DNA of 64,000 bases from Candidatus Spongiisociaceae bacterium. GTDB lineage: Bacteria > Actinomycetota > Acidimicrobiia > Spongiisociales > Spongiisociaceae. Numbering within the stretch: the stretch's first letter is position 1; each line of letters begins with the position of its first letter. Positions 407 through 19,925 of the stretch are shown here, one piece after another. Location: positions 2,432,001-2,496,000 of the forward strand of contig CBDCOH010000002.1 in the NCBI GenBank assembly GCA_965219685.1, in the 5' to 3' direction. Made by a program: the position numbers and the translations under genes. The notes under the pieces are model-generated. The model saw only the letters and a program-made list of their open reading frames with translations, was not told the DNA's origin and searched no databases.

Positions 407-1654
407 TCAGAGCGTAGCGAGCAGGCCACCGCCGGCCGCGGTCAGGATGACGACCAGCCAAGGGGGAAGTTTCCAGAAAGCCAGGAGCCCCAGCGCGACG
501 AGCGCGAGCCCGAAGTCCTCGGGACCGAGGATGGCGCTCGACCAGAGAGGATCGTACAGGGCGGCCAGCAGGACCCCCACCACTGCTGCGTTGACCCCGC
601 GCAGGACTGCCTGCACCTCGGGGCGTGCGCGGAGGGCCCCGAAGGTGGGGAGGGTGGCGACCACTATGAGGAAGGAGGGCAGGAAGATGGCCAGGAGGGC
701 CAGGAGAGCACCACCGACCCCGTTCGGCTCGGTACCAAGGGAGGCGCCGAGATAGGCCGAGAACGTGAATATGGGCCCCGGCACAGCTTGGGCCGCACCG
801 AATCCGGCGATGAAGGTCTCATCGTCGACCCAACCCGGTCCGACCACCTCGCTCTCGAGCAAGGGCAGGACGACAGGGCCTCCGCCGAACACCAGTGCCC
901 CGGAACCGTAGAAGGCGTCAGCCGTCCCGATGGCCGGAGCGTCGAACGCCGCCCTGGCCACCGGCAGCAGGGCCAACAGCGCGAAGAACAGGACCGCGCT
1001 GACAATCGCAGCCCGGCGTCCTGATCCGAGTTGGTACGAGCGGGCAGCAGCGGCTTCCCGGCGCAGGAAGAACCAGCCCACGATCCCGCCCAGGATGATG
1101 ACGACCACGATCGTGGTCCGCGCCGACGAGGGAAAGGCGATCACCGCCAGCGTTGCCAGGACCGCCATCGAACTGCGGAACCGGTCCGGCGCCAGCTGGC
1201 GCCACAGCTTCCACACCGCCAGGCCGACCACGGGAACGGCCACCACCACCAGCCCGTGGATCCACCCGGCCGCCTCCTCGGTGAGACGCGAAGCCGTCAG
1301 GCCCAGCACCGTCATGATCACGGCCGAGGGCAAGGTGAACCCGAGCCAGGCGATGACCCCGCCCCACAGACCACCCCGAGCCATCCCGATGGCCATGCCC
1401 AGCTTGCTGCTACCGGCGCCCGGGAACGCCTGCGAGAGGGCAACGAGGTCGGCGAAGGTCTCCTCATCGACCCAGCGGCGCCGCTGGACGTACTCGTCCT
1501 GGAAGTAGCCGATGTGGGCGATTGGGCCACCGAAGGAGGTGAGCCCGAGGCGCAGAGCCACCCAGAAGATCTCGACCAGCGGCCCTCGTTCCGGGATGAA
1601 AGTAGCCGGGGCAGGGCCGGCGTGGTGGTCGTTCGGGTTGCTATCGTCCGTCAC
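407..1654 (-). CDS. chrA: Chromate efflux transporter (CHR family, long form)
   Basis: 415-aa hydrophobic ORF with two homologous halves carrying CHR motifs: LGLTSFGGPIAHIGYF...SQAFPG and GALVFGGGPVVLPLL...AQAVPGP. Confidence 0.92.
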   Translation of the reverse strand: MTDDSNPNDHHAGPAPATFIPERGPLVEIFWVALRLGLTSFGGPIAHIGYFQDEYVQRRRWVDEETFADLVALSQAFPGAGSSKLGMAIGMARGGLWGGVIAWLGFTLPSAVIMTVLGLTASRLTEEAAGWIHGLVVVAVPVVGLAVWKLWRQLAPDRFRSSMAVLATLAVIAFPSSARTTIVVVIILGGIVGWFFLRREAAAARSYQLGSGRRAAIVSAVLFFALLALLPVARAAFDAPAIGTADAFYGSGALVFGGGPVVLPLLESEVVGPGWVDDETFIAGFGAAQAVPGPIFTFSAYLGASLGTEPNGVGGALLALLAIFLPSFLIVVATLPTFGALRARPEVQAVLRGVNAAVVGVLLAALYDPLWSSAILGPEDFGLALVALGLLAFWKLPPWLVVILTAAGGGLLATL

Positions 1655-1681
1655 CGGTATCCCCTAGTCATGCATCGCGGG

Positions 1682-1699
1682 CCAATATCGGGCTACGAT
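1682..1699 (+). promoter_or_regulatory. Operator variant CCAATATCGG followed by -10-like TACGAT (padR/chrA divergent region)
   Basis: 1682-1700 CCAATATCGGGCTACGATA differs by one base from 3139-3157 CCGATATCGGGCTACGATA. Confidence 0.6.
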
Positions 1700-1752
1700 A
1701 CCAGGCATCCGAATGGCGAACCGCGACGGACCAGCGACGAACAGGCGGCCAG

Positions 1753-2130
1753 ATGAGCAGGACCGACCGAATCGAGGGCCATCCCACCTTCGAGGCCCAT
1801 AGCAGGCTCTTCCGCGACATCCTGCTGGGTTTCGTTAGGGTGCATGTGCTCCACTGCGCCAGTAGAGGTCCCGTCTACGGGGTGGCGCTCAACGAGGAAC
1901 TCGCGGTCCACGGCTACAACCTGTCGCCGGGAACCCTCTATCCACTCCTCCACGGACTCGAGGACATCGGGTTTCTCGAGCGGACTCCGGAAGTCGTCGG
2001 CGGCAAGGTACGGAAGTACTACTCGCTGACCGACCGGGGACACCAGGCGCTTGAGGATCTCCGTTACAAGATTCGCGAGTTGGTCAGCGATGTGCTGGAT
2101 GGCGAGACCGTACCGGCGGGCTCCCGGTAG
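1753..2130 (+). CDS. PadR-family transcriptional regulator
   Basis: PadR wHTH signature: VLHCASRGPVYG...LSPGTLYPLLHGLEDIGFL...GKVRKYYSLTDRG. Confidence 0.92.
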   Translation: MSRTDRIEGHPTFEAHSRLFRDILLGFVRVHVLHCASRGPVYGVALNEELAVHGYNLSPGTLYPLLHGLEDIGFLERTPEVVGGKVRKYYSLTDRGHQALEDLRYKIRELVSDVLDGETVPAGSR

Positions 2131-2193: not shown

Positions 2194-3132
2194 ATGAGGA
2201 TCGGGCTGATGGCATCGATCTCTGCTGCCGGCGAGCCGACCCTCGAGAACATCACGGCAACCATCGTCCGGGCTGAAGCAACCGGGTTCGACACCGTTTG
2301 GACTTCGGGACGGATGGACGCCCTGACGCAACTGGCTCTCGCCTCGGTACGCACTAACCGTGTCGAGCTTGGCACGGCCATCGTGCCCACCTATCCCCGC
2401 CATCCGCACGCCTTGGTCCAGCAGGCCCTGACAGTCCAGATCGCCTGCGGCGGCAGACTGGCGCTCGGCGTTGGGGTGAGCCATGACACTTCGATGTCAT
2501 CCCTTGGTTTCGACTGGTCTGCGCCGGTCCGCCACGCCCGCGAGTACCTGAGCGGTCTGAATGGGTTGCTGGCAGGAGCGGAGGTTACGTTCGAAGGGAC
2601 CGACTTCTCCCTCTCGAATGCAACCGCGCCGCTCGCCCACCTGACGGCCGTCCCCCCGGTTCTCCTGGCTGCGCTGGGTCCGCAGATGCTGCGGGTGGCC
2701 GGAACGCTTTCCGACGGGACCGTCCTCTGGCTCAGCGGCGCGCGCTATGTGAGAACGGTGGCGGTGCCGGAGATCGCGGCCGCGGCGAAACGAGCCGGCA
2801 AACCCCCGCCGCGGGTGGTGGCAGGAGGTCCGGTGTGCGTGACCGACGATGCGAAGGCATCCTACGAACGCGCCGAACGCGTCCTGCACGCCATCGGGAA
2901 CAGGCCGGTCTACCGGTCGGTACTGGACCTCGACGGTTCGGCCAGCCCGGCCCAGGTAGCCCTGATCGGCGACGAAGCCCTCGTCGGTGAACGTCTTGAC
3001 GAGTTGGCCGAGGCAGGCGCCACCGACTTCGCCGCCCAGATCCTCGCCGCCTCTCCCGAGGAGTACGAGCGGACCCATGCCTTCCTGGCGGGCCGCGCCG
3101 GGACTGGTCACCGTGCCGGCACGGGTCGGTGA
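2194..3132 (+). CDS. LLM-class (luciferase-like), probably F420-dependent oxidoreductase
   Basis: Motifs ELGTAIVPTYPRHP, GRLALGVGVSH and AALGPQMLRVAG are typical of actinobacterial F420-dependent LLM proteins. Confidence 0.85.
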   Translation: MRIGLMASISAAGEPTLENITATIVRAEATGFDTVWTSGRMDALTQLALASVRTNRVELGTAIVPTYPRHPHALVQQALTVQIACGGRLALGVGVSHDTSMSSLGFDWSAPVRHAREYLSGLNGLLAGAEVTFEGTDFSLSNATAPLAHLTAVPPVLLAALGPQMLRVAGTLSDGTVLWLSGARYVRTVAVPEIAAAAKRAGKPPPRVVAGGPVCVTDDAKASYERAERVLHAIGNRPVYRSVLDLDGSASPAQVALIGDEALVGERLDELAEAGATDFAAQILAASPEEYERTHAFLAGRAGTGHRAGTGR

Positions 3133-3156
3133 CAGCTGCCGATATCGGGCTACGAT
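3129..3156 (+). promoter_or_regulatory. Promoter GTGACA-N16-TACGAT with palindromic operator CCGATATCGG (3139-3148) in the spacer
   Basis: Perfect 10-bp palindrome between -35-like and -10-like hexamers, upstream of the ORF at 3203. Confidence 0.65.
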
Positions 3157-3202
3157 AACGGTTGGACGGCAGTCAAGGTGAGAGAAAGCGAGGAGGCCGG
3201 TT

Positions 3203-3616
3203 GTGGATTGGGATCTGTTCGTGGTGCATTGGCTTCACGTCGCCTTCGGGATCTTCTGGGCCGGGTCGATCGCGTTCACGAGGGTGACCCTGTTCCCGGC
3301 CCTGGCCACGCTTCCCAAGGAACAGGCAGTGGCGGCGAGGAACACCCTGTTGACGGGGAATGCGAAGCGGATCACGTTGATCACGGCCGCCGGGACGGTG
3401 ACAACCGGGATCCTGCGGGGCCTCATGACCGGTGTATTGGATCAGTTGGACACGTCCTACGGATGGATCTACATACTGTCGGGCGTCATCGCGATCCTGA
3501 TGTTCCTCTTCCTGCTCGACTGGTCACCCAAACCGGCCGTCCTACGGCACATCTACCTCGCAGCCTTTCCGGTGCTCTTCACGATGATGGTGCTGATGCG
3601 TTTCGGAGGGTTCTAG
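3203..3616 (+). CDS. Small 4-TM membrane protein (CopD/DUF2269-like N-terminus)
   Basis: 137 aa, four hydrophobic segments, N-terminal WLHVAFGIFWAG motif; GGAGG upstream of the GTG start. Confidence 0.65.
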   Translation: MDWDLFVVHWLHVAFGIFWAGSIAFTRVTLFPALATLPKEQAVAARNTLLTGNAKRITLITAAGTVTTGILRGLMTGVLDQLDTSYGWIYILSGVIAILMFLFLLDWSPKPAVLRHIYLAAFPVLFTMMVLMRFGGF

Positions 3617-4854
3617 GAGGCTGGTGGCCGGTCGAGCGTTTCCTCCTCCACCCGGCCGGCCATCAGGCACAAGGGGAGGGCGACCGCCGACGCTACCAAG
3701 AAGCCGAGCGACAGGAATGTCACCGTACCGTCATAGGCGCGGTCGATCAGCGATCCCAGTAGCGCCCCTCCTCCGGTCGATGTTGCCCCGATGATCGACC
3801 CGGCGGTTCCTGCCTGCCCGGCCATCGGATCGAGGGCCAGGCTGTTCAGGTTGGCGACAACCAGGCCGTGCATGGCGGCGAGCACCGATAGACATACCAG
3901 GAAAAGTGCGAACGTCGGCCTTCCCTCCCCTACCCAGGTTGCGGTCGTCAATGTGAGCGCGGCCGCCAAGTAGATCACGAGGATCCCGACAACCACCCGC
4001 TCGGTCGTAAGCGTCTCGACCAACGCCGCGTTGGCGATCATGGCCGTGGCCATGATCGCGGTAATCCCCCCGTATATCCAGGGGAACTGCTGGGCGCGAC
4101 CGAAGATGTCGGAGAAGATCAGTTCGGAACTCGCCATGTACGAGAAGAAGGCGCCGAAGCTGAACGCCATAGCGACCGTGTAGAAGACCGTGTTGCGGTT
4201 GCGGAGAACCCGCAGGACGGAATTGCCTAGACGGGACACCGACCACCCGACGGCTGGCCGGACCGCCCGCGTCTCGCCGAGCCGGGTCGCCCAAACAGCC
4301 ACCACCGCCGCGAGCCCCACGGCCAACCAGAACACTCCGTGCCAGGAGGTGACATCCGCGATGGTGGCGCCCGCAACGGGAGCGAAGACAGGAACGATGG
4401 TGAAGACGGCGAACACCGACGACATGATCCTCGCCAGGCGATCCCCGTCGAACAGGTCCCTCACGATGGCCAGCGCCACGATCCGGGGCCCGGCCGCCCC
4501 CACACCCCAGAGAGCCTGAGTCGCCAGGAGCAGCGAGAGAGAACCTACGCTCCCCGCGAGTACCGACCCGGCAGCCCCGAGCGCATAGATCGAGAAGCCG
4601 ATCCTCAGCGCCGGCTTCCTCCCCAAAGCATCCGACAACGGCCCGTAGACCAGCCCGCCGACGGACAGACCGACGATGTAGGCCGTGATCGCCCCTGCGA
4701 GGCGGTTCGAGTCCTCGGCCAGCCCGAGAACCTGGCGCATCTCCCCGAACGCAGGCAGGATGAGCCCCACGAGCGCTGAAAGCGCCATCGCAGAGGACAG
4801 GAGCACGATCAGTTCCCCTTCGCGCATGCTCCTTGCGGGTGGGGTCAGGGTCAC
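3613..4854 (-). CDS. MFS transporter, Bcr/CflA (DHA1) drug-efflux family
   Basis: About 12 TM segments; motif A GPLSDALGRKP; AIVRDLFDGDRLARIMS; APVAG. Confidence 0.88.
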   Translation of the reverse strand: MTLTPPARSMREGELIVLLSSAMALSALVGLILPAFGEMRQVLGLAEDSNRLAGAITAYIVGLSVGGLVYGPLSDALGRKPALRIGFSIYALGAAGSVLAGSVGSLSLLLATQALWGVGAAGPRIVALAIVRDLFDGDRLARIMSSVFAVFTIVPVFAPVAGATIADVTSWHGVFWLAVGLAAVVAVWATRLGETRAVRPAVGWSVSRLGNSVLRVLRNRNTVFYTVAMAFSFGAFFSYMASSELIFSDIFGRAQQFPWIYGGITAIMATAMIANAALVETLTTERVVVGILVIYLAAALTLTTATWVGEGRPTFALFLVCLSVLAAMHGLVVANLNSLALDPMAGQAGTAGSIIGATSTGGGALLGSLIDRAYDGTVTFLSLGFLVASAVALPLCLMAGRVEEETLDRPPAS

Positions 4855-4933: not shown

Positions 4934-4950
4934 CCGATATCGGATAATAT
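4934..4950. promoter_or_regulatory. Operator CCGATATCGG (4934-4943) next to -10-like TAATAT, between the divergent MFS and CCG genes
   Basis: Perfect palindrome in a short divergent intergenic region, 1 nt before TAATAT (4945-4950). Confidence 0.7.
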
Positions 4951-4979
4951 AAGGGTGGCCTGCCGGATGGAGAGACCTC

Positions 4980-6077
4980 GTGATCGACAAGACGAAGTTC
5001 GATGTAAAGGGCTACTACACGGCCATGGCCGAGAGCAAGTCGCTTCTGATCGCCCGCGACGACCTCAAGTGGACCGAGCGGTGGGTGGAGCCCGACCGTC
5101 CCTACGACGCACTGCTCGCCTACGGTTGCGCGGTCCAGCATACGCCACACCTGATGCAGGAGGCCGCCAACGTCCTCGACGTGCTGGGCGTCGACTACTT
5201 CGCGGTCACCGGCCGACAGTTCTGCTGCGGCCGGCCGTTCGAGAAGATGGGCAAGGACGGCGCGGTCGCCGACCGCATCTCCGACAAGTCCTACCGGCGG
5301 TTCATGTCCTACCGCCCCAAAGTCGCGGTGCAGTGGTGCGGCGCCTGCATGCGCCAATACCTCGACACGATCAGCGCCCAGCAGGATCCCCCGTTCGCGG
5401 TGGTCCACGTCACCAAGTTCCTTGCCGACCTGCTCGAGGCGAGAGCCGCCGAGGTCCCCTGGGTTAGAGAGGTGAAGACGCGGGTCCTGCTGGAGGCCCA
5501 CCACGACCATGCCCAAGCCGACATAGACACCGCCTCGATTCTCCGCATCTTCGAGATGGTTCCCGGTGTCGACTTCGCCGGGTTCGTCGAGCCGCCGTCC
5601 GCCGGCACCCCGTGCGACCTCGAGGGTCCCAAGGCTGTGGGGGTACTCAACAAGGTCGACACCGAGACCTTCCAGCGCGCCATCACGGAACTGGAGGACC
5701 AGTTGGAGAAGGCAGGGGCAGACACCTTGGTGACCCCCTACCACAAGTGCCAGATGGAGTGGTCGAAGCTCTCCACGAAGAAGCTGGCTATCCGCGAGTG
5801 GATCTCACTGGTTGCGGAAGCGATGGGGGTGGGCGTCCAGGACCGCTACACCATGTACTGGCATCTGGGCGATCCCGAGAGAATCGCCGAGGAGGCTCGG
5901 CCGCAGTGGGAGACCTGGGGCTGGTCCGAGGAGCAGGCGATCGAGGCCGCCCGGCGGCACTTTGTTCCAGAATACGCTATCGACGTGCACCACTGCGACT
6001 GCGGCGGCAGCGGCTGCGGGAGCGAGGGAGCCGACCTGCTCTGGCCGGGACTCGTCGACGTGGCCTCCCTAGTCTGA
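4980..6077 (+). CDS. Stand-alone CCG-domain (HdrB/GlcF-like) Fe-S protein
   Basis: YGC...QFCCGRP...WCGAC forms one CCG repeat; a degenerate second repeat (PCD...PYHKC); Cys/His-rich tail HHCDCGGSGCG. Confidence 0.75.
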   Translation: MIDKTKFDVKGYYTAMAESKSLLIARDDLKWTERWVEPDRPYDALLAYGCAVQHTPHLMQEAANVLDVLGVDYFAVTGRQFCCGRPFEKMGKDGAVADRISDKSYRRFMSYRPKVAVQWCGACMRQYLDTISAQQDPPFAVVHVTKFLADLLEARAAEVPWVREVKTRVLLEAHHDHAQADIDTASILRIFEMVPGVDFAGFVEPPSAGTPCDLEGPKAVGVLNKVDTETFQRAITELEDQLEKAGADTLVTPYHKCQMEWSKLSTKKLAIREWISLVAEAMGVGVQDRYTMYWHLGDPERIAEEARPQWETWGWSEEQAIEAARRHFVPEYAIDVHHCDCGGSGCGSEGADLLWPGLVDVASLV

Positions 6078-6703: not shown

Positions 6704-7528
6704 CTACAGAGCGAAGCCGAAGTCGCGGGCGGCCTCCATCAACTCCAGCTTGTCGTCGTGCGCGCCGGAGCGCCTACCGATGATGAGAGCGCAGTTCACC
6801 TCGAATGTTCCACCGGGGAACTCCCGCGTCCGGCTGCCCGGTATCACGATCGATCGCGGCGGGACCTCCCCTTTGTGGGTGACAACGGGGTTCTGAGTCA
6901 CATCGATCACATGGGTGGATCCCGTGATCGAGTTCTGGGCGGCGATGACCGCTCCTTCGCCGACGATGACTCCCTCCACGATGATCGAGCGGGATCCGAT
7001 GAAGGCGTCATCCTCAACGATCACCGGCCTCGCCCCGGCGGGCTCCAGCACGCCCCCGATACCGACCCCGCCCGAGAGGTGCACCCTGCGGCCGATCTGC
7101 GCGCCGCTGCCGACCGTTGCCCAGGTGTCCACCAGCGTGCCCGTGCCCACGTAGGCGCCGATGTTGACGAAGCTGGGCATCATCACCACGCCGGGCTCCA
7201 GGTGGCTCCCGTAGCGGGCGATACCGCCGGCCACCACCCGGTTGCCCCGGGCCTCGTAGTCGTGCTTGAGGGGAAGTCGGTCGTAGAACTCGAGCGGCCC
7301 GGCGTGCAGGGTCTCCATCTCGGTGACTCGGAAGTAGAGGTTGATGGCCTGCTGGATCCAGGCGTGAACGATCCAATCGCCGTCGACCTTCTCCGCCAGC
7401 CTGAGCGCACCCTGGTCGAGGAGAGCCACGGTCTGCTCGACGGCATCGACTTCGTGGTCCTCCATGGCAGACGGGTGCCGCGCGGCCGCGCCGATGGTCC
7501 GCTCGAGGTGGGTGACGGTCGTGCTCAT
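6704..7528 (-). CDS. dapD: 2,3,4,5-tetrahydropyridine-2,6-dicarboxylate N-succinyltransferase (E. coli-type DapD)
   Basis: Hallmark MPSFVNIGAYVGTGTLVDTWATVGSGAQIGRRVHLSGGVGIGGVLEP; RBS GAAGGAGG. Confidence 0.93.
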   Translation of the reverse strand: MSTTVTHLERTIGAAARHPSAMEDHEVDAVEQTVALLDQGALRLAEKVDGDWIVHAWIQQAINLYFRVTEMETLHAGPLEFYDRLPLKHDYEARGNRVVAGGIARYGSHLEPGVVMMPSFVNIGAYVGTGTLVDTWATVGSGAQIGRRVHLSGGVGIGGVLEPAGARPVIVEDDAFIGSRSIIVEGVIVGEGAVIAAQNSITGSTHVIDVTQNPVVTHKGEVPPRSIVIPGSRTREFPGGTFEVNCALIIGRRSGAHDDKLELMEAARDFGFAL

Positions 7529-7546
7529 CGGTCCTCCTTCCGTGCT

Positions 7547-11782: not shown

Positions 11783-11804
11783 TAGCATCGAGACCCGATA
11801 TCGG
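11783..11804. promoter_or_regulatory. -10-like TAGCAT plus operator CCGATATCGG (11795-11804), between the divergent aminotransferase and PrpD genes
   Basis: Perfect palindrome begins at the predicted +1 of the plus-strand promoter. Confidence 0.7.
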
Positions 11805-11830: not shown

Positions 11831-13225
11831 ATGGGGACGGGTGGGGTAGGCCATGGACAGCTGGAGCGAAGCGGCCGCGACTTCGCCCCGGTGCCTTACC
11901 CGACCCAGACCGAACGGCTCGCCGCACATGTGGTGGGGCTCCGTTACGACGACATCCCGCGACCCGCCGTGGACAAGATGAAGGACCACATCGTCCATCA
12001 CCTCGGACTGGCCCTGCGGGGTCTCGGCACCGGAGAAGGCCGCCAAGCCATCCGGATCGCCGAGTCCTTCCGCCATGGGGGATCTGCCACCATCGTCGGC
12101 AGGCGAACCCGGACGGCTCCCCTGGAGGCCACCTTCGCCAACACGACCCTCATGCGTTCCGACTTCCTCGACGATGTGCTCTTTCCCGCCGGTGTCCACG
12201 CCGCTCTCGTGACCCTCCCACCTGCGCTGGCCGTCGCAGAGGAACGCCATCGGTCCGGAAAGGAGTTGCTCACCGCCCTGGTCGCCGCCTACGACGTGAT
12301 CGGCAAGCTGGGAAACGCGGCCGGAATACGCTCGGCGAGGGCGCCGAGAAGACCGACAATTCCCTTCGGACCCTTCGGCGGCGCGGCGGCGGTCGCCCGC
12401 CTGCTCGGCTTGTCGAAACACCCGACCGCCCACGCCCTGGGCTACGCGGCGCACTCGGGCATGGGCCTCAGCGAGGGTGATTTCGTCACTCACTACTACA
12501 GCCTGGTGGCCAGGAACGGCCTGATGGCAGCGCTGGCGGCCGACCATGGGGGGCAAGCGGCCCTGGCGGTGATGGAGGGTCGGTTCGGCTTCTGGAACAC
12601 ATTCTTCACGGGAGTTCCCCCGACCCTGGACGACTCGCTCGCCACCTTGGGTAAGGAGTTCGAGATCATGAACGCCACGACCAAGCGTTACCCGGGTACG
12701 GGGCTGAATATCGTCCCGATCGAACTCACCACCCACTTGGTGGAGGACCATTCCCTGACCGTTGCGAATACCCGCTCGGTGACCGTGTTCCTGCCCGCCG
12801 AGCGGGAGAGCTTCGTCACGGGCCACATGCAGCCCCCCTTCGAAAGCGAAGCGGCGGCCCGCAGCTCGCTGGTTCTGGCCATCGCCACCATCCTCGCGAC
12901 CGGCCGGATCGACCCGGCGCTTGTCAAGCAGTACGCCCGTCCGGATCTGGTGGAACTCTGCAGCCGGATCCGCGTGGTCCTGGAGGAGGGCCATCCCATC
13001 CGCTACGCCCGGATCGAGATCGCCACCCGCGACGGACGCTCGCTAGCCGCCCAGGGACATGACCACTCCTTCGATCCGGCGGAGTGGCTCCGCTGGATCT
13101 CCATCGGCGGAACCGATGTCCTCGGACGCGATGCGCTCGCCGCGCTGGTGGAGACAATGGATCGCCTCGAAGACCTTGACGACGTAGCCGACTTGACAAC
13201 CTTGCTCCGACCTCCCGATAGTTGA
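11831..13225 (+). CDS. MmgE/PrpD family protein
   Basis: LRYDDIPRPAVDKMK, ATFANTTL...DFLDD...GVH, SGKELLTALVAAYDV, MEGRFGF, KRYPG; exact start uncertain. Confidence 0.85.
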   Translation: MGTGGVGHGQLERSGRDFAPVPYPTQTERLAAHVVGLRYDDIPRPAVDKMKDHIVHHLGLALRGLGTGEGRQAIRIAESFRHGGSATIVGRRTRTAPLEATFANTTLMRSDFLDDVLFPAGVHAALVTLPPALAVAEERHRSGKELLTALVAAYDVIGKLGNAAGIRSARAPRRPTIPFGPFGGAAAVARLLGLSKHPTAHALGYAAHSGMGLSEGDFVTHYYSLVARNGLMAALAADHGGQAALAVMEGRFGFWNTFFTGVPPTLDDSLATLGKEFEIMNATTKRYPGTGLNIVPIELTTHLVEDHSLTVANTRSVTVFLPAERESFVTGHMQPPFESEAAARSSLVLAIATILATGRIDPALVKQYARPDLVELCSRIRVVLEEGHPIRYARIEIATRDGRSLAAQGHDHSFDPAEWLRWISIGGTDVLGRDALAALVETMDRLEDLDDVADLTTLLRPPDS

Positions 13226-13305: not shown

Positions 13306-13359
13306 AGCCACCAGCCATTAGCAAAACTCACAACTACTAACTAATAACTACCAACTATT
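13306..13359 (-). repeat. C/A-rich degenerate heptamer array (AGCCAYY x2, AACT-led x5)
   Basis: AGCCACC AGCCATT ... AACTCAC AACTACT AACTAAT AACTACC AACTATT; contains the racemase stop codon. Confidence 0.75.
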
Positions 13360-14082
13360 AAGTAGCTCCCGTCCGAACAGTGACTGATGGGTCGACGTCA
13401 CCAGGGAGTAGAGATCGAAGATGGGGAGGCCGGTCGCGCGCCGCATCGCGTTGCCCCAAGGAACGAAGTTCGTGCACTCGAGGACGATCGCGCCCACATC
13501 AGGATGCTCCTCGACCTGGCGGCGAGCCAGCGCCACCAGCTCTGCCTCCAGCACGGCGGTGTCGGCGACAACCGTCTGGTCGATGTACACCTGTGGGAAG
13601 ACGGCATCCCTCGGCATGGATGTGACGACCGTGTCGACTTCCCCCGGTTGCCAGCCCATGCCGACGAAGTGGCGGTCGGTGAGGTGCGGGCGTTCGGTCA
13701 GGATCCCGACCTTCCGTCCCGGCCCGACGAGCCGGCCCGCCAACGGGACCTGGAGCAGGGCGGAGGTGAGCATCGGGACGCCGACGCTCGCCTGCATCGC
13801 CCGGTGGAAGACCGATAGGAAACCACAGCTGGTGGTGATCGCCCTCACTCCCTTCGCCTCCAACTCTCTCGCGCCTTCGATGAAGGGGGCGAGCAGCGTC
13901 GGGTCGGGCTCCGAACCCATGATCCTGCTCGTGTCGGCCCCCTTCACGACCTTGTAGAGAACCGGGAACGGCCACGTCAGGGCGTTTCCCACGTCGCCGG
14001 GTGGTCTGGGACAGGTCGTGTCGAGCATGAGGATCCCGATGTCGTGGCCGTAAACGGTACGGCCGCCTTTCACTATCGCCAT
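13348..14082 (-). CDS. Asp/Glu/hydantoin racemase family protein (paralog 1)
   Basis: Two-Cys motifs ITTSCGF and LECTN; N-terminal GILMLDT..PR.PGDVGNA.TWPFPV; RBS AAGGAGG. Confidence 0.85.
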   Translation of the reverse strand: MAIVKGGRTVYGHDIGILMLDTTCPRPPGDVGNALTWPFPVLYKVVKGADTSRIMGSEPDPTLLAPFIEGARELEAKGVRAITTSCGFLSVFHRAMQASVGVPMLTSALLQVPLAGRLVGPGRKVGILTERPHLTDRHFVGMGWQPGEVDTVVTSMPRDAVFPQVYIDQTVVADTAVLEAELVALARRQVEEHPDVGAIVLECTNFVPWGNAMRRATGLPIFDLYSLVTSTHQSLFGRELLNSW

Positions 14083-14151: not shown

Positions 14152-14161
14152 CCGATATCAT
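14152..14161. promoter_or_regulatory. Operator variant CCGATATCAT between the divergent racemase and aconitase X genes
   Basis: 8/10 match to the palindrome, in the divergent intergenic region. Confidence 0.5.
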
Positions 14162-14198: not shown

Positions 14199-15476
14199 AT
14201 GAGGCTCACATACGAAGACCTCGAGATGCTGGACGGCAAGCAGGGAGAGGCCCGGCGCCGGGCGATGGAGGGACTCGTCCAGTTGGGCGCGGCCTTCGGG
14301 GCGGAAGACCTGGTGTCGATCGGGTACGCCCACGTGCATCCGGGCATGGCCATGTACGCCCAGGATGTGGAGTTGCTCGAGGAATTGGTGGATCTCGGCG
14401 GGCAGGTTGTGGTCCCGACCACGGCCAACGTCACCAACGTCGACACGGAGAACTGGAGGCAGACGGGAGCCCCCGAATCGCTGGCCCGGCTCCACATGCG
14501 GGGGGTACGAGCCCACAAGGCTCTCGGCTGCGTGAGCGCCATGACCTGTACACCCTATTGGGCCGGGCATTGGCCGACGTGGAACATGCACATGACCTCG
14601 ATCGAGTCCGGGGTCACGGTGTTCTGCAACTCGGTGCTCGGCGCCCGCTCGAACCGGGACGGTTTCTTCAGCGTCTACGCGGCATTGACCGGCCGCTATC
14701 CCCGCTTCGGCTACCACCTCGACGAGAACCGGGCGGGCACGCATCTGGTTACGGTGGAGACCCCCCTGGACAACACGACCGACTTCAGTTGCCTGGGCTA
14801 CCACCTGGGACCGCTGGTCGGGACCGGCGTACCGGTCTTCACCGGCTTCTCCAGGCGTCCCTCACTCGACGAACTGGACGCTTTGGGAGCGGGTCTCGCC
14901 ACAACCGGAGGCGTATCCATGTTCATCGTCCCCGGCATCACACCCCCGTACCAGTCGAAGAGCCAGGCCATGGCGGGCAATCGGGCTCCGGTGGAGATCC
15001 GCGTAGGGCCTCCCGACATCGACCGGGTATACGACTCCTTCTCCTCGTCTCCAGCCGGATCCCGGATCGACTTCGTCCATATCGGATGTCCCCATGCCTC
15101 CTTCCAGGAGATGAAGGAGTACACTGCGCTGCTCTCCGGACGGACCGTCCACCCCGACGTGGAACTGTGGATCACCACCAGCGGCGCCGTCAAGGCCCTG
15201 TGCGCACGGGAAGGATTGATCGACACGCTCACCGATGCAGGCGCCAAGGTCATAACCGACACCTGCCCGATGTCATGCCATTTCGCGCGGACAACCTCGC
15301 CGGATCCCGGGATCGTGCTTCCCGAGCCCCACATCCGCCGGATGGTCGTGGACTCCGCCAAACAGGCCAAGTACAGCCGCGACATGATCATGTGCGAGAC
15401 CCTCCTGGCAACGACCACCTCCGCAGTCGCGACCGCAATCTCCGGGCGGCTCGTGACAGGGAGGGCCCACCCGTGA
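14199..15476 (+). CDS. Aconitase X large (catalytic) subunit, DUF521
   Basis: MLDGKQGEARRRAM, MTCTPY, ES..FCNSVLGARSNR, AALTGRYP.FGYHLDENR, IGCPH, DTC; start at ATG 14199 after GGAG. Confidence 0.9.
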   Translation: MRLTYEDLEMLDGKQGEARRRAMEGLVQLGAAFGAEDLVSIGYAHVHPGMAMYAQDVELLEELVDLGGQVVVPTTANVTNVDTENWRQTGAPESLARLHMRGVRAHKALGCVSAMTCTPYWAGHWPTWNMHMTSIESGVTVFCNSVLGARSNRDGFFSVYAALTGRYPRFGYHLDENRAGTHLVTVETPLDNTTDFSCLGYHLGPLVGTGVPVFTGFSRRPSLDELDALGAGLATTGGVSMFIVPGITPPYQSKSQAMAGNRAPVEIRVGPPDIDRVYDSFSSSPAGSRIDFVHIGCPHASFQEMKEYTALLSGRTVHPDVELWITTSGAVKALCAREGLIDTLTDAGAKVITDTCPMSCHFARTTSPDPGIVLPEPHIRRMVVDSAKQAKYSRDMIMCETLLATTTSAVATAISGRLVTGRAHP

Positions 15477-15910
15477 ACGGTCGGTACCGGATCGCGGCGC
15501 GTGGCATCGTCCCCGGCAAGGCGTCGGGCCCCGCCCTCGTCTCGACCGAAGGCCTCTCCTTCCTGGGGGATCTCGACATCAGGAGCGGCCGGGTCGTGAA
15601 CAGGACGCACGAGATGCGGGGCCGCAGCGTGACCGGGACGGTTCTGGTGCTCCCGCACAGCGTGGGTTCGGCGGGGGCATGGCGTTTCCTCTACCAGTTG
15701 CAGGTACACGGCACGCACCCGGTGGCAATCGTCCAGAACGCTCTGCCCGACTCCTCGCTCGTCCAGGGCGCCATCCTCGGCGGTATACCGGTGGTATGCG
15801 AGCCCGAAGTGGACGTGACCACCGCGATCCGTTCGGGGGACACAGTCGAGGTAGACGGCGGGACGGGCGTCGTGAGCATATGGCCGGGACTATCGGGGGT
15901 ACCGGCATGA
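15473..15910 (+). CDS. Aconitase X small (swivel) subunit, DUF126
   Basis: GKASGPALVSTEGLSFLGDLD...GRSVTGTVLVLPHSVGS...IRSGDTVEVDGGTG; GTGA overlap with the large subunit. Confidence 0.88.
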   Translation: MNGRYRIAARGIVPGKASGPALVSTEGLSFLGDLDIRSGRVVNRTHEMRGRSVTGTVLVLPHSVGSAGAWRFLYQLQVHGTHPVAIVQNALPDSSLVQGAILGGIPVVCEPEVDVTTAIRSGDTVEVDGGTGVVSIWPGLSGVPA

Positions 15911-16635
15911 TCGACGGAGGACGAACGGTCTACGGCTTCGAACTCGGAGTCCTGATGCTGGACACCGTATTCCCACGGCTGGTCGGGGATGTGGGGAATG
16001 CCGGCACCTGGCCCTTTCCGGTCCGGTACCGGGTCGTACGGGGGGCGACCTCCCGCCGGGTCGTCCAGGAACCGGACGACGCGCTACTCGGCCTGTTCAT
16101 AGACGGCGCCAGGGATCTCGAGCGGGACGGAGTGCGGATGATCACCACCAGTTGCGGATTCCTCGCCCTTTACCAGAAGGAACTAGCGGCAGCCGTCTCC
16201 GTCCCGTTCCTCTCCTCTTCCCTGCTCCAGGTACCCGATGCCGCCCGGCTCATCGGGCCCGATCGCAAGGTCGGCATCCTGACCATGAGCCGGGACGACC
16301 TCACCGAGGCACACTATGCGGCGCTCGGGTGGTCATCGACCGACCTACCGGTGATCGTGTCGTCCTCCGCCCCCGGGGCACTGTTCTGGGAGACCTATCT
16401 GGTGGGCCGCCCGAGTGTCGATCCCGCGGCCCTCGAGGGGGAACTGGTCGACCTCTGTGGCGACCTCGTGGCCGGCAATCCCGAGGTGGGGGCTCTGGTT
16501 CTGGAGTGCACCAACTTCGGCCCGTTCGCTCCGGCTCTCCGCAAGGAGTTCGGTCTTCCGGTCTATGACCTGGCAACGCTCGTACTCCAGACCCGCATGG
16601 CGATATCGGGCGCCGGATTCGAGGCCATCCGATGA
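15907..16635 (+). CDS. Asp/Glu/hydantoin racemase family protein (paralog 2)
   Basis: Same ITTSCGF / LECTN motifs and N-terminus as 13348-14082; ATGA overlap at 15907. Confidence 0.85.
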   Translation: MIDGGRTVYGFELGVLMLDTVFPRLVGDVGNAGTWPFPVRYRVVRGATSRRVVQEPDDALLGLFIDGARDLERDGVRMITTSCGFLALYQKELAAAVSVPFLSSSLLQVPDAARLIGPDRKVGILTMSRDDLTEAHYAALGWSSTDLPVIVSSSAPGALFWETYLVGRPSVDPAALEGELVDLCGDLVAGNPEVGALVLECTNFGPFAPALRKEFGLPVYDLATLVLQTRMAISGAGFEAIR

Positions 16636-17705
16636 TCCCTGGACCTGATCAGACGCCCGACGGCATGGTCCTCGTCGCCGCGTCCCATCTGGAGGGATTC
16701 GCCTCGCGGGTCTTCCGGTCGCTGGGCATGGACAGCGACCATGCCGCGTTGATGGCGGAGCAGATCACCTGGGCCCATGCGCGGGGGCACTCCTGGCTGG
16801 GCGCACCCAAGATCATCCAGTACGGATCCAGGATCCGTACTGGGGCCACCTCACCGGTGGGCGAACCCCGGGTGATCTCGGAGACGGGTGCGTTCACGCT
16901 GCTCGACGCAGGCAACACGTTCAGCCAGATCTCCGGGGTCCGGGCCATGGACCTCGCCATCCGCAAGGCCGGGGAGATGGGCGCCGCCGTCTCGGTGCTG
17001 CGCAACACCACGTCAGCCGGAGCGCTCGGTTACTTCGCCATGCGTGCTGCCGACCGGAGGATGATCGGCATGGCCAACAACAACGCTCCTGCCCTGATGC
17101 CTCCGTGGGGGGGCACCACCAAGCTCATCGGCAACCAGGCCTTCGCCATCGCCAGCCCGGCCGGGAGGCACCAACCGGTCCTGCTCGACATGGCCCTGTC
17201 GGAGATGACCCTGGTCCGGTACCACGAGTACGAGGAACGCGGGGAGCAGCTTCCGGCAGGAGTCGCCCTCGATGCGTCGGGCCTGCCCACGACCGATCCG
17301 GCCGAGGCCCTCAAGGGCATGATGGTTCCGATGGGAGACCACCGCGGCTACGGGCTGGCGGTCATGTGGGAAGTGATCACGGGGGTGCTCTCGGGTTCGT
17401 TGCGATTCCTCGACGAGGTGACGATGCCGGACGTGTTCGACCGCCCGCAGGCGGTGAGCATGTTCTTTCTCGCGCTCAACCCGGAGATGTCGATGCCGTT
17501 CGAAGAATTCGCCGGGCGGGTCGACGGGCTCGTCGACGCCATGCACGGTTCCCCGCCGGCGCCCGGCGTGGAGCGCGTCTACGTCCCGGGAGAGCGGAGC
17601 GCCGAACTCGCCGGGGAACGCATGCGCAGCGGCATACCCATGCCCAGGGCTCTCATCGGCCGGTTGGAGGGCTTCGGTAACGAGGTGGGAGTGCCATGGG
17701 CCTGA
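16632..17705 (+). CDS. Ldh_2 (type 2 malate/L-lactate dehydrogenase, DpkA/AllD/ComC-like) oxidoreductase 1
   Basis: AMDLAIRKA, PPWGG, LLDMA, LDASGLPTTDP, GDHRGYGL, VYVPGE. Confidence 0.85.
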   Translation: MIPGPDQTPDGMVLVAASHLEGFASRVFRSLGMDSDHAALMAEQITWAHARGHSWLGAPKIIQYGSRIRTGATSPVGEPRVISETGAFTLLDAGNTFSQISGVRAMDLAIRKAGEMGAAVSVLRNTTSAGALGYFAMRAADRRMIGMANNNAPALMPPWGGTTKLIGNQAFAIASPAGRHQPVLLDMALSEMTLVRYHEYEERGEQLPAGVALDASGLPTTDPAEALKGMMVPMGDHRGYGLAVMWEVITGVLSGSLRFLDEVTMPDVFDRPQAVSMFFLALNPEMSMPFEEFAGRVDGLVDAMHGSPPAPGVERVYVPGERSAELAGERMRSGIPMPRALIGRLEGFGNEVGVPWA

Positions 17706-17781
17706 GACCGGCGCTGGTGGGCCCTTGGCACGGCACCCTTTGTCCACCATCCTTGCACGCCGGTGCCGGCCGGAGGCCGGT

Positions 17782-18837
17782 ATGAGCCCGCCGCCGGTCC
17801 GGATTCCGGCTGAACAGCTCCACGGCCTGGGCCTGGCACTCCTCGAGGCCATCGGTATGCCGCCCGCCGATGCCGCCATCGCGGCCGGGGCGATGGTATG
17901 GAACGAGTTGCGGGGGGCGGCCGGGCACGGCCTGGGGCGGATCCTCCAGATTCAGGAAAGGTCGGGAGCGGGCGGTCTGAATCTCGAAGTGGATTGGACG
18001 CCCATTCGCGAGTCACCTGCCACGGCGCTGATCGACGCGCAGAACGGATGGGGGGTGGTCGCGGGCACGAGGGCCATGCGGATCGCAATCGACAAGGCTC
18101 GGCTGAACGGGGTCGGGACCGTGGTGGTGCGCAACAGCGACGTCACATCCGCCATGGGCTACTACCCCTACGTGGCGACGGAGGCCGAGATGGTCGGGCT
18201 CGCCGTCACCAACTCGGTGCCGCTGATGCCGCCCTGGGGTGGTAGCGAAGTCCTGCTGGGAAACCAGGCCTTCGCGATCGGGGTCCCGGCAAGGATCCAC
18301 CCGCCTCTGATCTTCGACTCGTCGACTAGCGCCTACAACATGGGAAAGATGCGCCAAGCGGCTGTCTCGGGCGAGAGGCTGCCTCCCGGCGTAGCCCTCG
18401 ACGAAACCGGAGAGGAGACGGACGATGCAGAAGCCGCGCTCGCCGCGTTGCGCCTCCTGCCGATGGGCGGTCACCGCGGGGGAGGTCTGGCGATCATGTG
18501 GGAGGTCTTCACCGGCATCCTCGCCGGTGGGAGGTCCACAACCGAGGTCGTGGGCATGCAGCACCTGGACAGGACCCAGGGTCTGAGCCTCTACGTGCAG
18601 GCTCTCGATCCGCGCAGCTTCCTGCCATACGAGGAGTTCCTGTCCAGAGTTGACCGGTTGATCGGCCAGATCCACTCCAACCCGCCCCGAGAGGGCTTCG
18701 GCCAGGTGCGGGTACCGGGCGAGCGCAAGGCCGGGTTCGAAGCCGAGTACCGGACGCGGGGCGTGCCGTTCCCCACCGAGAACCTCGAACGCCTCCGGGC
18801 ACTGTGCCTGGATCGCGGGGTGGTATGGCCGTGGTGA
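17782..18837 (+). CDS. Ldh_2 family oxidoreductase 2
   Basis: ELRGAAGHG, AMRIAIDKA, PPWGG, GGHRGGGL, VRVPGE; ATG 17782 follows GGAGG. Confidence 0.85.
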   Translation: MSPPPVRIPAEQLHGLGLALLEAIGMPPADAAIAAGAMVWNELRGAAGHGLGRILQIQERSGAGGLNLEVDWTPIRESPATALIDAQNGWGVVAGTRAMRIAIDKARLNGVGTVVVRNSDVTSAMGYYPYVATEAEMVGLAVTNSVPLMPPWGGSEVLLGNQAFAIGVPARIHPPLIFDSSTSAYNMGKMRQAAVSGERLPPGVALDETGEETDDAEAALAALRLLPMGGHRGGGLAIMWEVFTGILAGGRSTTEVVGMQHLDRTQGLSLYVQALDPRSFLPYEEFLSRVDRLIGQIHSNPPREGFGQVRVPGERKAGFEAEYRTRGVPFPTENLERLRALCLDRGVVWPW

Positions 18838-19925
18838 GGTCGCAGCCGGGCAACCGGCCACCGGACGACCAGACTCTTCCGACCGTCGACGCCGGCGACC
18901 TGCGGCGGTTCGCGGCCGCGGTCCTGCAGGCCCAGGGAGTGGCGCCTGCGGACGCGGCCCTCGCTGCCGATGCCATGGTCTGGGCCGACCTCAGGGGAAG
19001 GTACGCTCACGGAACGAGCAGCAAGCTTCCCCAATGTGTATCCCGGATCCGGGCCGGTGGGACATCCACATCTGGCGAGTTGCCCTTCGTCTCGGAGACT
19101 GCTGCGACCTTCGTGCTCGACGGGCGCCACTCTTGGGGTCAGATCGCAGCTTCGAAGGCGATGATGGCGGCCGTGGAGAAGGCTCGGTCCGTTGGCGTGT
19201 CCGTCGGCGTCGTGCGCGACTGCAGTTCCGCAGCCGCGATGGGTTACTACCCCCTGCTGGCAGTGGCCGAGGGCATGATCGGCCTCGCCGTCACCAACGG
19301 ACCTCCCCTCATCGCTCCTTCCGGGGGTTCCACCAGACTGTTGGGAAACCAGGCCCACGCGATAGGCTGCCCGGCCAACCGCCACCATCCGATCGTGTTC
19401 GACGCGGCGACCACCGCCATGTCCACCTCCGAGATGGATCTCGTCCACGAGCGCGGCGAGCTACTCCCGGAAGGAGTCCTGTACACCGCCGACGGAACAC
19501 CGACCAGAGATCCCTCGCTCTGGGTTGACGGCCTCCTGGCCCCGGCGGGAGGTCACCGTGGCTACGGGTTGTCGCTGATGTTCGAGATTCTCACGGGTGT
19601 GCTGGCGGGAGGCGCGAGGCTCGCTCCTGATGTAGGGCATCCGTTCGACAGCCGGGAACCCCAGGGCGTATCCCTGTTCGTGGTGGCGATCGACCCCGAG
19701 CACTCGATCGGATACGGAGAGTTGACGCGGCGGGTCGACTCGCTGATCGACCGGCTGCACGCCTCTGGGACCGCCCCCGGCATCGAGAGGATCTACGTAC
19801 CCGGTGAACGGAGCTTCATCCTGGCCGAGAGGCGGGAACGGGACGGAATTCCGATGCCGGTGGAGCGGCTGGAGGCCCTCCGCCGGATCGGTTCGGAGTC
19901 GGGCCTGACGCTTGCTAGTTGGTAG
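18825..19925 (+). CDS. Ldh_2 family oxidoreductase 3
   Basis: ADLRGRYAHG, AVEKA, FDAATT, GGHRGYGL, IYVPGE; start at 18825 or 18834. Confidence 0.85.
   Translation: MAVVRSQPGNRPPDDQTLPTVDAGDLRRFAAAVLQAQGVAPADAALAADAMVWADLRGRYAHGTSSKLPQCVSRIRAGGTSTSGELPFVSETAATFVLDGRHSWGQIAASKAMMAAVEKARSVGVSVGVVRDCSSAAAMGYYPLLAVAEGMIGLAVTNGPPLIAPSGGSTRLLGNQAHAIGCPANRHHPIVFDAATTAMSTSEMDLVHERGELLPEGVLYTADGTPTRDPSLWVDGLLAPAGGHRGYGLSLMFEILTGVLAGGARLAPDVGHPFDSREPQGVSLFVVAIDPEHSIGYGELTRRVDSLIDRLHASGTAPGIERIYVPGERSFILAERRERDGIPMPVERLEALRRIGSESGLTLASW

Follow-up and report, generated by a model that had tools for sequence, protein, structure and literature searches.

A 64-kb stretch of the genome of Candidatus Spongiisociaceae bacterium (contig CBDCOH010000002.1, positions 2,432,001 to 2,496,000; hereafter "the window," meaning the whole stretch) carries in its first 20 kb a cluster of genes around a two-subunit aconitase X (AcnX). 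We mapped the genes from an open reading frame (ORF) listing together with Pfam and NCBIfam scans of the 64 kb. All gene families named in a preliminary description of this DNA are found within positions 407-19925. They include the AcnX large and small subunits, two two-cysteine racemases (RacA and RacB), three Ldh_2 oxidoreductases, an MmgE/PrpD-family protein, a thiamine pyrophosphate (TPP) enzyme, an acyl-CoA dehydrogenase (ACAD), an aminotransferase, a DapD-like succinyltransferase, an F420-dependent oxidoreductase of the LLM class, a CCG-domain Fe-S protein, and two transporters. A PadR-family regulator and a small membrane protein complete the set.

We are confident that this is a real cluster, conserved and co-regulated around AcnX, the function of which is unassigned. 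Its partial recurrence in other bacteria makes it probable that the cluster encodes a genuine pathway that has yet to be described. Our proposal for that pathway is tentative, and we hold it at somewhat less than even odds: a single regulon, the products of which would epimerize an acidic 3-hydroxy-2-amino or 2-hydroxy acid, dehydrate it, and then reduce it or transaminate it.

Setting of the cluster

The cluster had been called an island. This name fits a gene cluster, and not foreign DNA, because its G+C content is not set apart (0.648-0.681 across the cluster, 0.641-0.692 in the remaining window). An island acquired by horizontal transfer was considered and rejected, as composition gives no signal for it. 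The remaining window holds core genes, including tmk, holB, topA, the nuo operon, and AdnAB-like helicases. The cluster is separated from holB by genes for a trypsin-like peptidase and a class-I O-methyltransferase (19965-21437, minus strand), which have no operator of the kind described below. This pair is kept in three related loci (L001, L002, and L006) and is absent from a fourth, L003, where the third Ldh_2 gene abuts holB.

We found no match between the gene set and a characterized pathway: DapD is the only protein to reach the equivalog cut-off of such an enzyme. The literature searched likewise holds no account of this combination, in agreement with the preliminary description. The search terms (AcnX, DUF521/DUF126, the dehydratase names, and PrpD/racemase/aconitase catabolism) returned no AcnX function beyond the two known ones. 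An Rfam scan of positions 1-24000 at E <= 1 gave no riboswitch or other RNA that would name a ligand.

Conservation of the cluster

We compared the cluster by tblastn with 80 loci around AcnX homologs, taken from one scan of species-representative genomes. Six of these loci were annotated by Pfam scans of all long ORFs. AcnX is 93% identical to that of the window in L001, 89-90% in L002 and L006, 81% in L003, and 70% in L007. L001, L002, and L006 come from related Acidimicrobiia and keep the row from the transporter of the major facilitator superfamily (MFS) to the third Ldh_2 gene, with DapD missing from its place between the CCG and TPP genes in L002 and L006. All three loci stop short of the expected position of padR and chrA. 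L007 belongs to Candidatus Limnocylindrales (Chloroflexota) and has the core genes together with PadR, LLM, and MFS genes; ChrA, TPP, and ACAD are missing.

The PrpD-like gene, RacA, both AcnX subunits, RacB, and the three Ldh_2 genes occur at 5 of the 80 loci (L001, L002, L003, L006, and L007). The aminotransferase occurs at four of these and is absent from L003. We regard these nine genes as the old nucleus of the cluster, because the set persists in both Acidimicrobiia and Chloroflexota loci. Thus, the co-occurrence in other genomes by which the preliminary description proposed to judge the cluster is seen in related Acidimicrobiia and in one Chloroflexota genome.

By these comparisons, the PadR, LLM, and MFS genes travel with the core across phyla. 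By the same token, the TPP, ACAD, and CCG genes (3 of 80 loci, all close relatives: L001, L002, and L006) and DapD (1 of 80, L001) are lineage-specific additions that the operator alone ties to the rest.

The core of L003 (PrpD, RacA, AcnX, RacB, and three Ldh_2 genes) directly adjoins holB and tmk. Upstream of it (L003:217-6819) are genes for a RidA-like protein, two Opp/Dpp-type ABC permeases, a protein resembling glycine/sarcosine/betaine reductase B, and an Amidohydro_2 protein; these stand where the window has its aminotransferase, TPP, and ACAD genes. L007 has additional genes of its own: a molybdopterin oxidoreductase of the bis(pyranopterin guanine dinucleotide) (bis-PGD) type (2905-5604), a DapF gene adjoining the aminotransferase (5570-6388), a fourth Ldh_2 gene, and an FhuF-like gene inside the Ldh_2 row (about 15800-16707). 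A tblastn search of AcnX against plasmids gave three records at 33-39% identity.

Operator and regulation

Six promoter regions of the cluster each contain the palindrome CCGATATCGG or a close variant (O1 to O6, Table 1), and we propose that they would form a single regulon under a PadR-type repressor. Four copies in the 64 kb are exact (at 3139, 4934, 9284, and 11795), and all four are intergenic and lie in promoter regions. Shuffled sequences gave a mean of 0.13 copies, and none of 100 shuffles reached four. The GATATC hexamer occurs 13 times in the window, 10 of them in the first 20 kb, and 6 of these 10 fall within about 1.65 kb of intergenic DNA. The spacer of a promoter-like site, GTGACA-16-TACGAT (3129-3156), contains O2.

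The sites are conserved. O3, O4, and O5 have counterparts in L001, L002, and L006, and the block CCCGATATCAT at O6 is kept in L001, L002, L006, and L003, although its flanks diverge. L007 carries GCGATATCAGGATCC in the intergenic region that matches O5. CGATATC cores are found there upstream of the LLM gene, in the aminotransferase/PrpD gap, and upstream of AcnX. The earlier claim that one operator links the genes is therefore upheld: in three related loci the sites recur at orthologous positions between genes, and L007 has cores in three promoter regions. The PadR ortholog of L007 is 62% identical to that of the window and adjoins the LLM gene. From the co-occurrence of this regulator with CGATATC sites in both the window and L007, we infer that PadR binds the palindrome.

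A one-mismatch copy, GCGATATCGG, lies at 16600-16609, within the last codons of RacB and just upstream of the first Ldh_2 gene. L001 and L003 share it; it was not detected in L002 or L006. It could serve as an operator copy inside the gene, or its conservation could reflect nothing more than its coding role.

Conservation and operator together bear on a different view of the region, as a mosaic. A PadR-controlled stress or detoxification regulon (ChrA, MFS transporter, F420 reductase, and small membrane protein) would share promoters with two unrelated metabolic modules, the AcnX core and the TPP/ACAD/CCG/DapD group. We consider this unlikely. It would account for the restriction of TPP, ACAD, and CCG to three loci and of DapD to one, for a core in L003 that lacks all four and the aminotransferase too, and for two transporters of efflux-type families. 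However, L007, from another phylum, combines PadR, LLM, and MFS genes with the AcnX core in a setting that lacks ChrA, TPP, and ACAD, and the operator is equally exact at the TPP/ACAD, aminotransferase/PrpD, and transporter genes. We therefore favor a single regulon over a mosaic.

Table 1. Genes and operator sites of the AcnX cluster, in window coordinates. Bit scores are followed by the family cut-off where one is given.
Feature	Position	Strand	Assignment and remarks
ChrA-family (CHR) anion transporter	407..1654	-	PF02417 245 bits; TIGR00937 307.8 bits (cut-off 171.7); divergent from padR
O1	1682..1691		CCAATATCGG, one mismatch; between chrA and padR; then GCTACGATA, as at O2
PadR-family regulator	1753..2130	+	PF03551 67.1 bits; presumed operator binder
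F420-dependent LLM-class oxidoreductase	2194..3132	+	TIGR03564 270.2 bits (cut-off 234.25)
O2	3139..3148		Exact CCGATATCGG; precedes gene for 137-aa membrane protein; kept in L002 (381)
137-aa membrane protein	3203..3616	+	Several hydrophobic stretches; own exact operator copy
MFS transporter, Bcr/CflA-like (DHA1 type)	3613..4854	-	PF07690 106 bits; TIGR00710 166 bits (below cut-off 200.9)
O3	4934..4943		Exact; MFS/CCG gap; kept in L001 (556), L002 (2195), L006 (2231)
CCG-domain Fe-S protein, heterodisulfide-reductase-related	4980..6077	+	PF02754 37.4 bits, one domain
DapD-like tetrahydrodipicolinate N-succinyltransferase	6704..7528	-	NF008808 303.3 bits (cut-off 204); downstream of TPP gene
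TPP enzyme, benzoylformate-decarboxylase-like	7547..9256	-	Three TPP domains
O4	9284..9293		Exact; TPP/ACAD gap; kept in L001 (4976), L002 (5104), L006 (5138)
ACAD	9372..10556	+	Four ACAD domains; all NCBIfam names below cut-offs
DapL-like class-I aminotransferase	10563..11747	-	PRK09276 508.4 bits (cut-off 507)
O5	11795..11804		Exact; aminotransferase/PrpD gap; exact in L001, one mismatch in L002 and L006
MmgE/PrpD-family protein	11831..13225	+	PF03972 164.9 bits
RacA	13348..14082	-	PRK07475 273.1 bits (cut-off 231); two-Cys Asp/Glu racemase superfamily
O6	14152..14159		Variant CCGATATCAT (CCGATATC then AT); ~40 bp upstream of AcnX
AcnX large (catalytic) subunit	14199..15476	+	PF04412 370.9 bits
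AcnX small (swivel) subunit	15473..15910	+	PF01989 72.7 bits; TkAcnX small subunit 63 bits
RacB	15907..16635	+	PRK07475 266.8 bits (cut-off 231); paralog of RacA
Ldh_2 1	16632..17705	+	PF02615 314.7 bits; own orthologous group, support 96/98
Ldh_2 2	17725..18837	+	PF02615 314.1 bits; own orthologous group, support 100/100
Ldh_2 3	18804..19925	+	PF02615 311.7 bits; own orthologous group, support 100/99

Aconitase X

The AcnX of the window has both domains of its family, the PF04412 catalytic domain and the PF01989 swivel domain; the start of the large subunit was set from a 425-aa database copy, P0001. We mapped its residues onto AtAcnX and TkAcnX from pairwise alignments, with residue roles as given in excerpts of PMC8184944. 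The catalytic Ser70, Glu292, Ser293, Lys530, and Tyr534 (AtAcnX numbering) are all identical, and Asn233 is also kept. In an alignment of 16 relatives, which covers the large subunit only (Ser70 is on the small one), the Glu, Lys, and Tyr do not vary, and the Ser293 position hardly does.

The positions of AtAcnX Cys273, Ser449, and Cys508 are occupied by cysteines, namely the C117, C297, and C356 that are invariant among the 16 relatives. The [2Fe-2S] ligand set Cys273/Cys508/Cys510 is incomplete, as Cys510 is replaced by Met, and the three-cysteine cubane ligand set of AcnX Type-IIb (TkAcnX) is present in full. The cysteine pattern is thus like that of the archaeal [4Fe-4S] enzyme.

The substrate pockets of both known enzymes are changed. 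According to PMC8184944, AtAcnX holds cis-3-hydroxy-L-proline by its pyrrolidine ring and nitrogen through four residues, all of which are replaced here (Trp35 to Leu, Thr72 to Gly, Asp203 to His, and Ile206 to Met). These replacements tell against the earlier proposal that this AcnX acts on a ring resembling cis-3-hydroxy-L-proline. The mevalonate-phosphate pocket of TkAcnX is replaced as well (Gly48-Val49-Ser50 by Pro-Gly-Met, Asn53 by Tyr, and Thr63 of the small subunit by Ala). His47 and Met50, the replacements of Asp203 and Ile206, are invariant, together with Tyr43, His45, and Tyr53, in the 16 relatives, which are 61-93% identical. With the NF051439 equivalog (cut-off 700), the large subunit scores 266 bits and the small subunit 53. 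According to PMC8184944, AcnX Types IIc to IIf have not been characterized and are without the hallmark residues of either known activity. By its residues, the AcnX of the window fits these subclasses.

Racemases and Ldh_2 oxidoreductases

RacA and RacB are 51% identical. Of their two catalytic-type cysteines, C86 is the same throughout an alignment of 24 sequences, in 23 of which C203 is also present. A sequence search of the PDB with RacA at E <= 0.01 gave no match. An AlphaFold2 model of RacA (predicted local distance difference test 89.0, predicted template modeling score 0.86) was then compared by Foldseek. It matched arylmalonate decarboxylase and glutamate, aspartate, and hydantoin racemases with template modeling scores of 0.53-0.64, 12-19% identity, and probability 1.00. 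The modeled fold, the two cysteines, and the PRK07475 scores thus place RacA and RacB in the aspartate/glutamate/hydantoin racemase superfamily. Their own family is very large: of 8,000 candidates scored, at least 7,993 are related at E <= 1e-20, and the family carries generic names. RacA and the PrpD-like gene are convergent, and between them lies an AT-rich spacer of 122 bp with GATAGTT/GATAATT repeats (13226-13347). This spacer cannot be aligned to those of L001 or L002 and has no Rfam match.

In a tree of 16 Ldh_2 sequences, which omits L006 and the fragment L076, we find three clades, and every clade combines four genes from Acidimicrobiia with one from L007. The three paralogs are therefore old and separately maintained. 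The best PDB scores are to type-2 malate dehydrogenase (170-190 bits) and to the sulfolactate dehydrogenase ComC (2x06; 157-180 bits). DpkA (1wtj/2cwh) reaches 86, 106, and 119 bits with the three proteins. The analogy with DpkA drawn in the preliminary description is therefore not sustained, although similarity rank does not fix the substrate.

These scores raise the possibility of an organosulfonate pathway. In such a pathway, the racemase would act on cysteate, the aminotransferase would yield sulfopyruvate, the Ldh_2 proteins would be sulfolactate dehydrogenases, the TPP enzyme would act on a sulfo-oxo acid, and ChrA would export sulfite or sulfate. Several names agree with this scheme: the best NCBIfam name of all three Ldh_2 proteins is L-sulfolactate dehydrogenase (172-200 bits), that of RacB is cysteate racemase CuyB (25.8 bits), that of ACAD is 3-sulfinopropanoyl-CoA desulfinase (336.7 bits), sulfoacetaldehyde acetyltransferase is among the matches of the TPP enzyme, and ComC scores nearly equal malate dehydrogenase for Ldh_2. 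All of these scores, however, fall far under their cut-offs (500, 190, 600, and 620). Neither the window nor the six Pfam-annotated loci showed a TauE-type sulfite exporter, Xsc, SuyAB, or CuyA, and no role with sulfonates is known for AcnX or PrpD. We thus hold an organosulfonate pathway to be very improbable, the least likely of the readings considered here.

Aminotransferase and other enzymes

The aminotransferase is 82-87% identical in L001, L002, and L006 and 55% in L007. With the DapL equivalog TIGR03540, it scores 514.9 bits (cut-off 593.25), and its best PDB matches are unnamed "probable aminotransferases" and not LL-diaminopimelate (DAP) aminotransferases. The DapF gene beside it in L007 is a true DapF (243.4 bits, cut-off 114.65). 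DapD of the window has THDPS_N_2 and hexapeptide domains, and it scores 239.4 bits with TIGR00965, below the cut-off of 375.4. Near it are an 80-aa fragment of a retropepsin-like aspartyl protease (6222-6464, minus strand; PF13650 25.1 bits) and an adjoining AT-rich, promoter-like stretch at 6464-6540 (TGGACT-18-TATAAT), with a GATATC core at 6505. The fragment and DapD look like a lineage-specific insertion, because the segment is absent between the CCG and TPP genes of L002 and L006. The DAP link proposed earlier therefore stands only in part. DapD is not conserved (window and L001), and a link is still hinted at by the retention of the DapL-like enzyme at 4 of 80 loci and by the true DapF beside it in L007.

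This link lends support to a cyclic substrate. A hydroxylated cyclic imino acid (hydroxyproline, hydroxypipecolate, or hydroxy-piperidine-dicarboxylate) would be converted by AcnX to a cyclic imine such as tetrahydrodipicolinate, which the Ldh_2 proteins would reduce and the DapL-like enzyme and DapD would process. The only bacterial AcnX with an assigned function makes a cyclic imine, according to the excerpts of PMC5144071. DpkA belongs to the Ldh_2 family, the aminotransferase just passes its subfamily cut-off, and DapD passes one of two equivalog cut-offs. Nevertheless, we judge a cyclic substrate unlikely. None of the four residues with which AtAcnX holds the ring and its nitrogen is retained, and the NF051439 score is far from its cut-off. 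For each of the three Ldh_2 proteins, DpkA is either the lowest-scoring PDB match or one of the lower-scoring ones. The best PDB matches of the aminotransferase are not LL-DAP aminotransferases, DapD is found at one locus, and the DapF/aminotransferase pair of L007 could be a housekeeping lysine pair.

The PrpD-like protein has the N-terminal family domain alone above the Pfam cut-off. It scores 32.9 bits with the 2-methylcitrate dehydratase equivalog NF042438 (cut-off 950), and its nearest PDB matches are cis-aconitate decarboxylase (75.7 bits) and iminodisuccinate epimerase (60.4 bits). The TPP enzyme scores 325.8 bits with the benzoylformate decarboxylase equivalog NF005485 (cut-off 493) and about 200 bits with benzoylformate decarboxylases in the PDB. 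It belongs to the benzoylformate-decarboxylase branch, a family placement that does not assign a reaction. It is 77-78% identical in L001, L002, and L006 only, and the CCG protein is 93-94% identical in the same three loci only; the nearest ESM Atlas clusters of the latter are all CCG proteins. For the proposed sequence of decarboxylation and oxidation at the CoA level, the TPP and ACAD genes are indeed present, but only in the window and its three closest relatives. The names "TPP decarboxylase," "DAP-type aminotransferase," and "exporters" are acceptable as family-level names and not as demonstrated functions.

Transporters and remaining genes

PadR regulators are often paired with efflux genes, and a role in chromate/sulfate transport has been proposed for the CHR family. 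ChrA homologs lie less than 10 kb from AcnX in two unrelated loci, L021 and L079 (9315-10439), so the chrA of the window may be more than a chance neighbor. In L079, a Chloroflexia contig, AcnX and PrpD are each split over two to three ORFs (5055-6457 and 6852-8293), through either assembly frameshift errors or gene decay. The MFS transporter is 76-77% identical in L001, L002, and L006. The LLM ortholog of L007 is 50% identical and scores 281.8 bits with TIGR03564. The 137-aa membrane protein has copies of 81% identity in L002 and L006. No Pfam or NCBIfam family matches it, and its one lead from the ESM Atlas, to CopD-like proteins, is weak (0.88).

Aconitase X in other genomes

Neighbor counts were obtained by tblastn of 32 annotated proteins against the same 80 loci and are lower bounds. 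Both AcnX subunits occur with one PRK07475-family racemase at 42 loci, mostly in Alphaproteobacteria; this count includes the five core loci. Also near AcnX are an aspartate-dehydrogenase-like gene (58 loci; below its equivalog cut-off), a PrpD-family gene of their own (54), an acetolactate-synthase-like TPP enzyme (46), a DadA-like FAD oxidoreductase (33-35), a short-chain dehydrogenase/reductase (SDR) (28-30), a GntR regulator (21), a Glyoxalase_3 gene (19), and an MR/MLE enzyme (18). Transporters of the TTT (19-21) and TRAP-TAXI (17-18) types are found too. A D-serine-dehydratase-type, pyridoxal phosphate-dependent enzyme is present in L004 and L005, and the RidA-like gene in L003 has been noted above. 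These neighbors, with nitrogen-handling dehydrogenases or oxidases and organic-acid uptake, point to the catabolism of acidic hydroxy-amino acids rather than rings.

They also bear on the direction of the pathway. The cluster could instead be biosynthetic, making an unusual amino or hydroxy acid, perhaps derived from DAP, for export by the MFS transporter or ChrA. Recruited DAP-pathway homologs, the FhuF-like gene inside the Ldh_2 row of L007, and efflux-type transporters with no uptake system in the window's cluster would all be in keeping with synthesis. Yet the cluster has no ligase, synthetase, or other assembly enzyme, and the AcnX-racemase pair is found elsewhere with uptake systems and GntR, and in L003 with ABC permeases. 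Biosynthesis is therefore quite improbable, more so than a cyclic substrate or a mosaic.

Proposed pathway

We infer the reactions, their order, and the substrate of the proposed catabolic scheme from the gene families, operator, synteny, and active-site residues presented above. PadR would be released from its operators by the substrate or an intermediate. The two cofactor-free, two-cysteine racemases would set the configuration at C2, acting on two stereoisomers or on two intermediates. AcnX, as an Fe-S dehydratase, would eliminate water across C2-C3 of a 3-hydroxy acid that bears an amino or hydroxyl group at C2. Its product would be an enamine or enol, from which tautomerization would give a 2-imino or 2-oxo acid. 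Interconversion of the 2-oxo, 2-hydroxy, and 2-amino forms would fall to the aminotransferase and the three Ldh_2 enzymes, and the PrpD-like protein could catalyze dehydration, decarboxylation, or epimerization of a polycarboxylate intermediate. The lineage-specific extension (TPP enzyme, ACAD, CCG protein, and, here, DapD) may carry the product to the CoA level.

The substrate had been guessed to be a hydroxylated piperidine or pyrrolidine carboxylate. We find this guess unsupported, given the replaced ring pocket of AcnX, the weak match to DpkA, and the rarity of DapD; in our view an acyclic di-acid is more likely than a ring. A more specific version of the scheme, which we put forward as a possibility of distinctly lower probability than the scheme itself, has three parts. 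A new class of AcnX, acting with two-cysteine epimerases, would dehydrate a 3-hydroxylated acidic amino acid, for example 3-hydroxy-diaminopimelate or a compound of the 3-hydroxyaspartate type; the product would enter the tetrahydrodipicolinate/2-oxo-acid pool; and the three Ldh_2 enzymes would be dedicated to it.

Several observations weigh against the catabolic scheme. The cluster of the window has no uptake transporter, and both of its transporters look efflux-type by family. The DapL-like aminotransferase, the DapF of L007, and the DapD of the window point to tetrahydrodipicolinate, a cyclic imine. The TPP, ACAD, and CCG genes are confined to three close relatives, with the operator as the one link that makes them members of the pathway. 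As for regulation, a promoter-like match is found at one (O2) of the six operator sites, and L003 keeps the site near AcnX, yet has no PadR within 10 kb. The PrpD and TPP genes of Alphaproteobacteria are 23-33% identical to those of the window, and the TPP enzymes are of the acetolactate-synthase-like subfamily; because of this low identity, only the AcnX-racemase pair is truly shared. Finally, many of the 80 loci are short contigs, so absences from them are weak evidence.

Two AcnX reactions are known, and the bacterial Type-II subclasses c to f are explicitly left unassigned in PMC8184944. If true, the three-part version of the scheme would give AcnX a third known reaction and would give a function to a large racemase family. 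Handles for such a reaction are at hand: a co-regulated gene set shared across phyla, a candidate ligand-sensing regulator, and a simple operator that could be used as a reporter. The AcnX-racemase pair is also carried by culturable bacteria, including Stella and a number of roseobacters; examples are L020 (Stella sp. ATCC 35155), L040 (Stella vacuolata ATCC 43931), L051 (Pseudooceanicola pacificus), and L065 (Salipiger mucosus DSM 16094). The partner racemases abound in environmental sequences, yet their family has neither a solved structure nor an assigned substrate. A single substrate, once named, would allow thousands of genes to be annotated.

Comparison with known systems

Among the closest characterized parallels is the cis-3-hydroxy-L-proline pathway, in which an AcnX dehydratase of Type-I/IIa (LhpI) is followed by pyrroline-2-carboxylate reductase (excerpts of PMC5144071 and PMC8184944). 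The cluster shares with it a PF04412 + PF01989 dehydratase, the catalytic Ser, Glu, Ser, Lys, and Tyr, and a logic of epimerase, dehydratase, and reductase; the two-subunit architecture is that of Type-II enzymes. The two also differ. The large subunit matches AtAcnX at 181 bits and ~30% identity (estimated by eye from the alignment), with the ring-binding Trp35, Thr72, Asp203, and Ile206 replaced, Cys510 changed to Met, and a Cys at the Ser449 position. The epimerases of the window are of the aspartate/glutamate-racemase type, whereas those of the hydroxyproline pathway are of the proline-racemase or enolase type. Finally, the window has three Ldh_2 paralogs, which are nearer to malate and sulfolactate dehydrogenases than to DpkA.

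The archaeal phosphomevalonate dehydratase (Type-IIb, TkAcnX, 7cnr) is the best PDB match of both subunits (large subunit, 185.7 bits). It has the same split subunits and the same three cubane cysteine positions. In the window, however, the phosphate pocket is replaced, Thr63 of the small subunit is Ala, and no mevalonate-pathway genes are nearby.

A widespread and separate AcnX cluster exists in Alphaproteobacteria (L051:4278-17829, L020:993-19497, L005:1577-18690, and ~50 further loci). In such clusters, for example those of L051 (Pseudooceanicola pacificus) and L020 (Stella sp. ATCC 35155), the AcnX large subunit is 51-71% identical to that of the window, the small subunit is present, the PRK07475 racemase is 39-55% identical, and a PrpD-family gene and a TPP enzyme are nearby. 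These clusters have aspartate-dehydrogenase-like, DadA-like, SDR, MR/MLE, and Glyoxalase_3 genes in place of the Ldh_2 and aminotransferase genes, GntR rather than PadR, and TTT or TRAP uptake systems. The PrpD and TPP genes in them are not orthologs of those in the window. They are themselves uncharacterized clusters.

The EutABC genes, reportedly responsible for hydroxyectoine conversion, encode a racemase-like protein, a dehydratase, and a reductase. The first enzyme belongs to the aspartate/glutamate-racemase superfamily, the dehydratase depends on pyridoxal phosphate, and the reductase is of the ornithine-cyclodeaminase type. Both systems would epimerize, dehydrate, and reduce, which is a likeness of logic. 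All parts of the present cluster belong to known superfamilies, its logic resembles that of the hydroxyproline pathway, and in other respects it is an ordinary orphan metabolic cluster. New here are the subclass of the AcnX enzyme, the partner racemase family, the fixed Ldh_2 triple, and the PadR operator.

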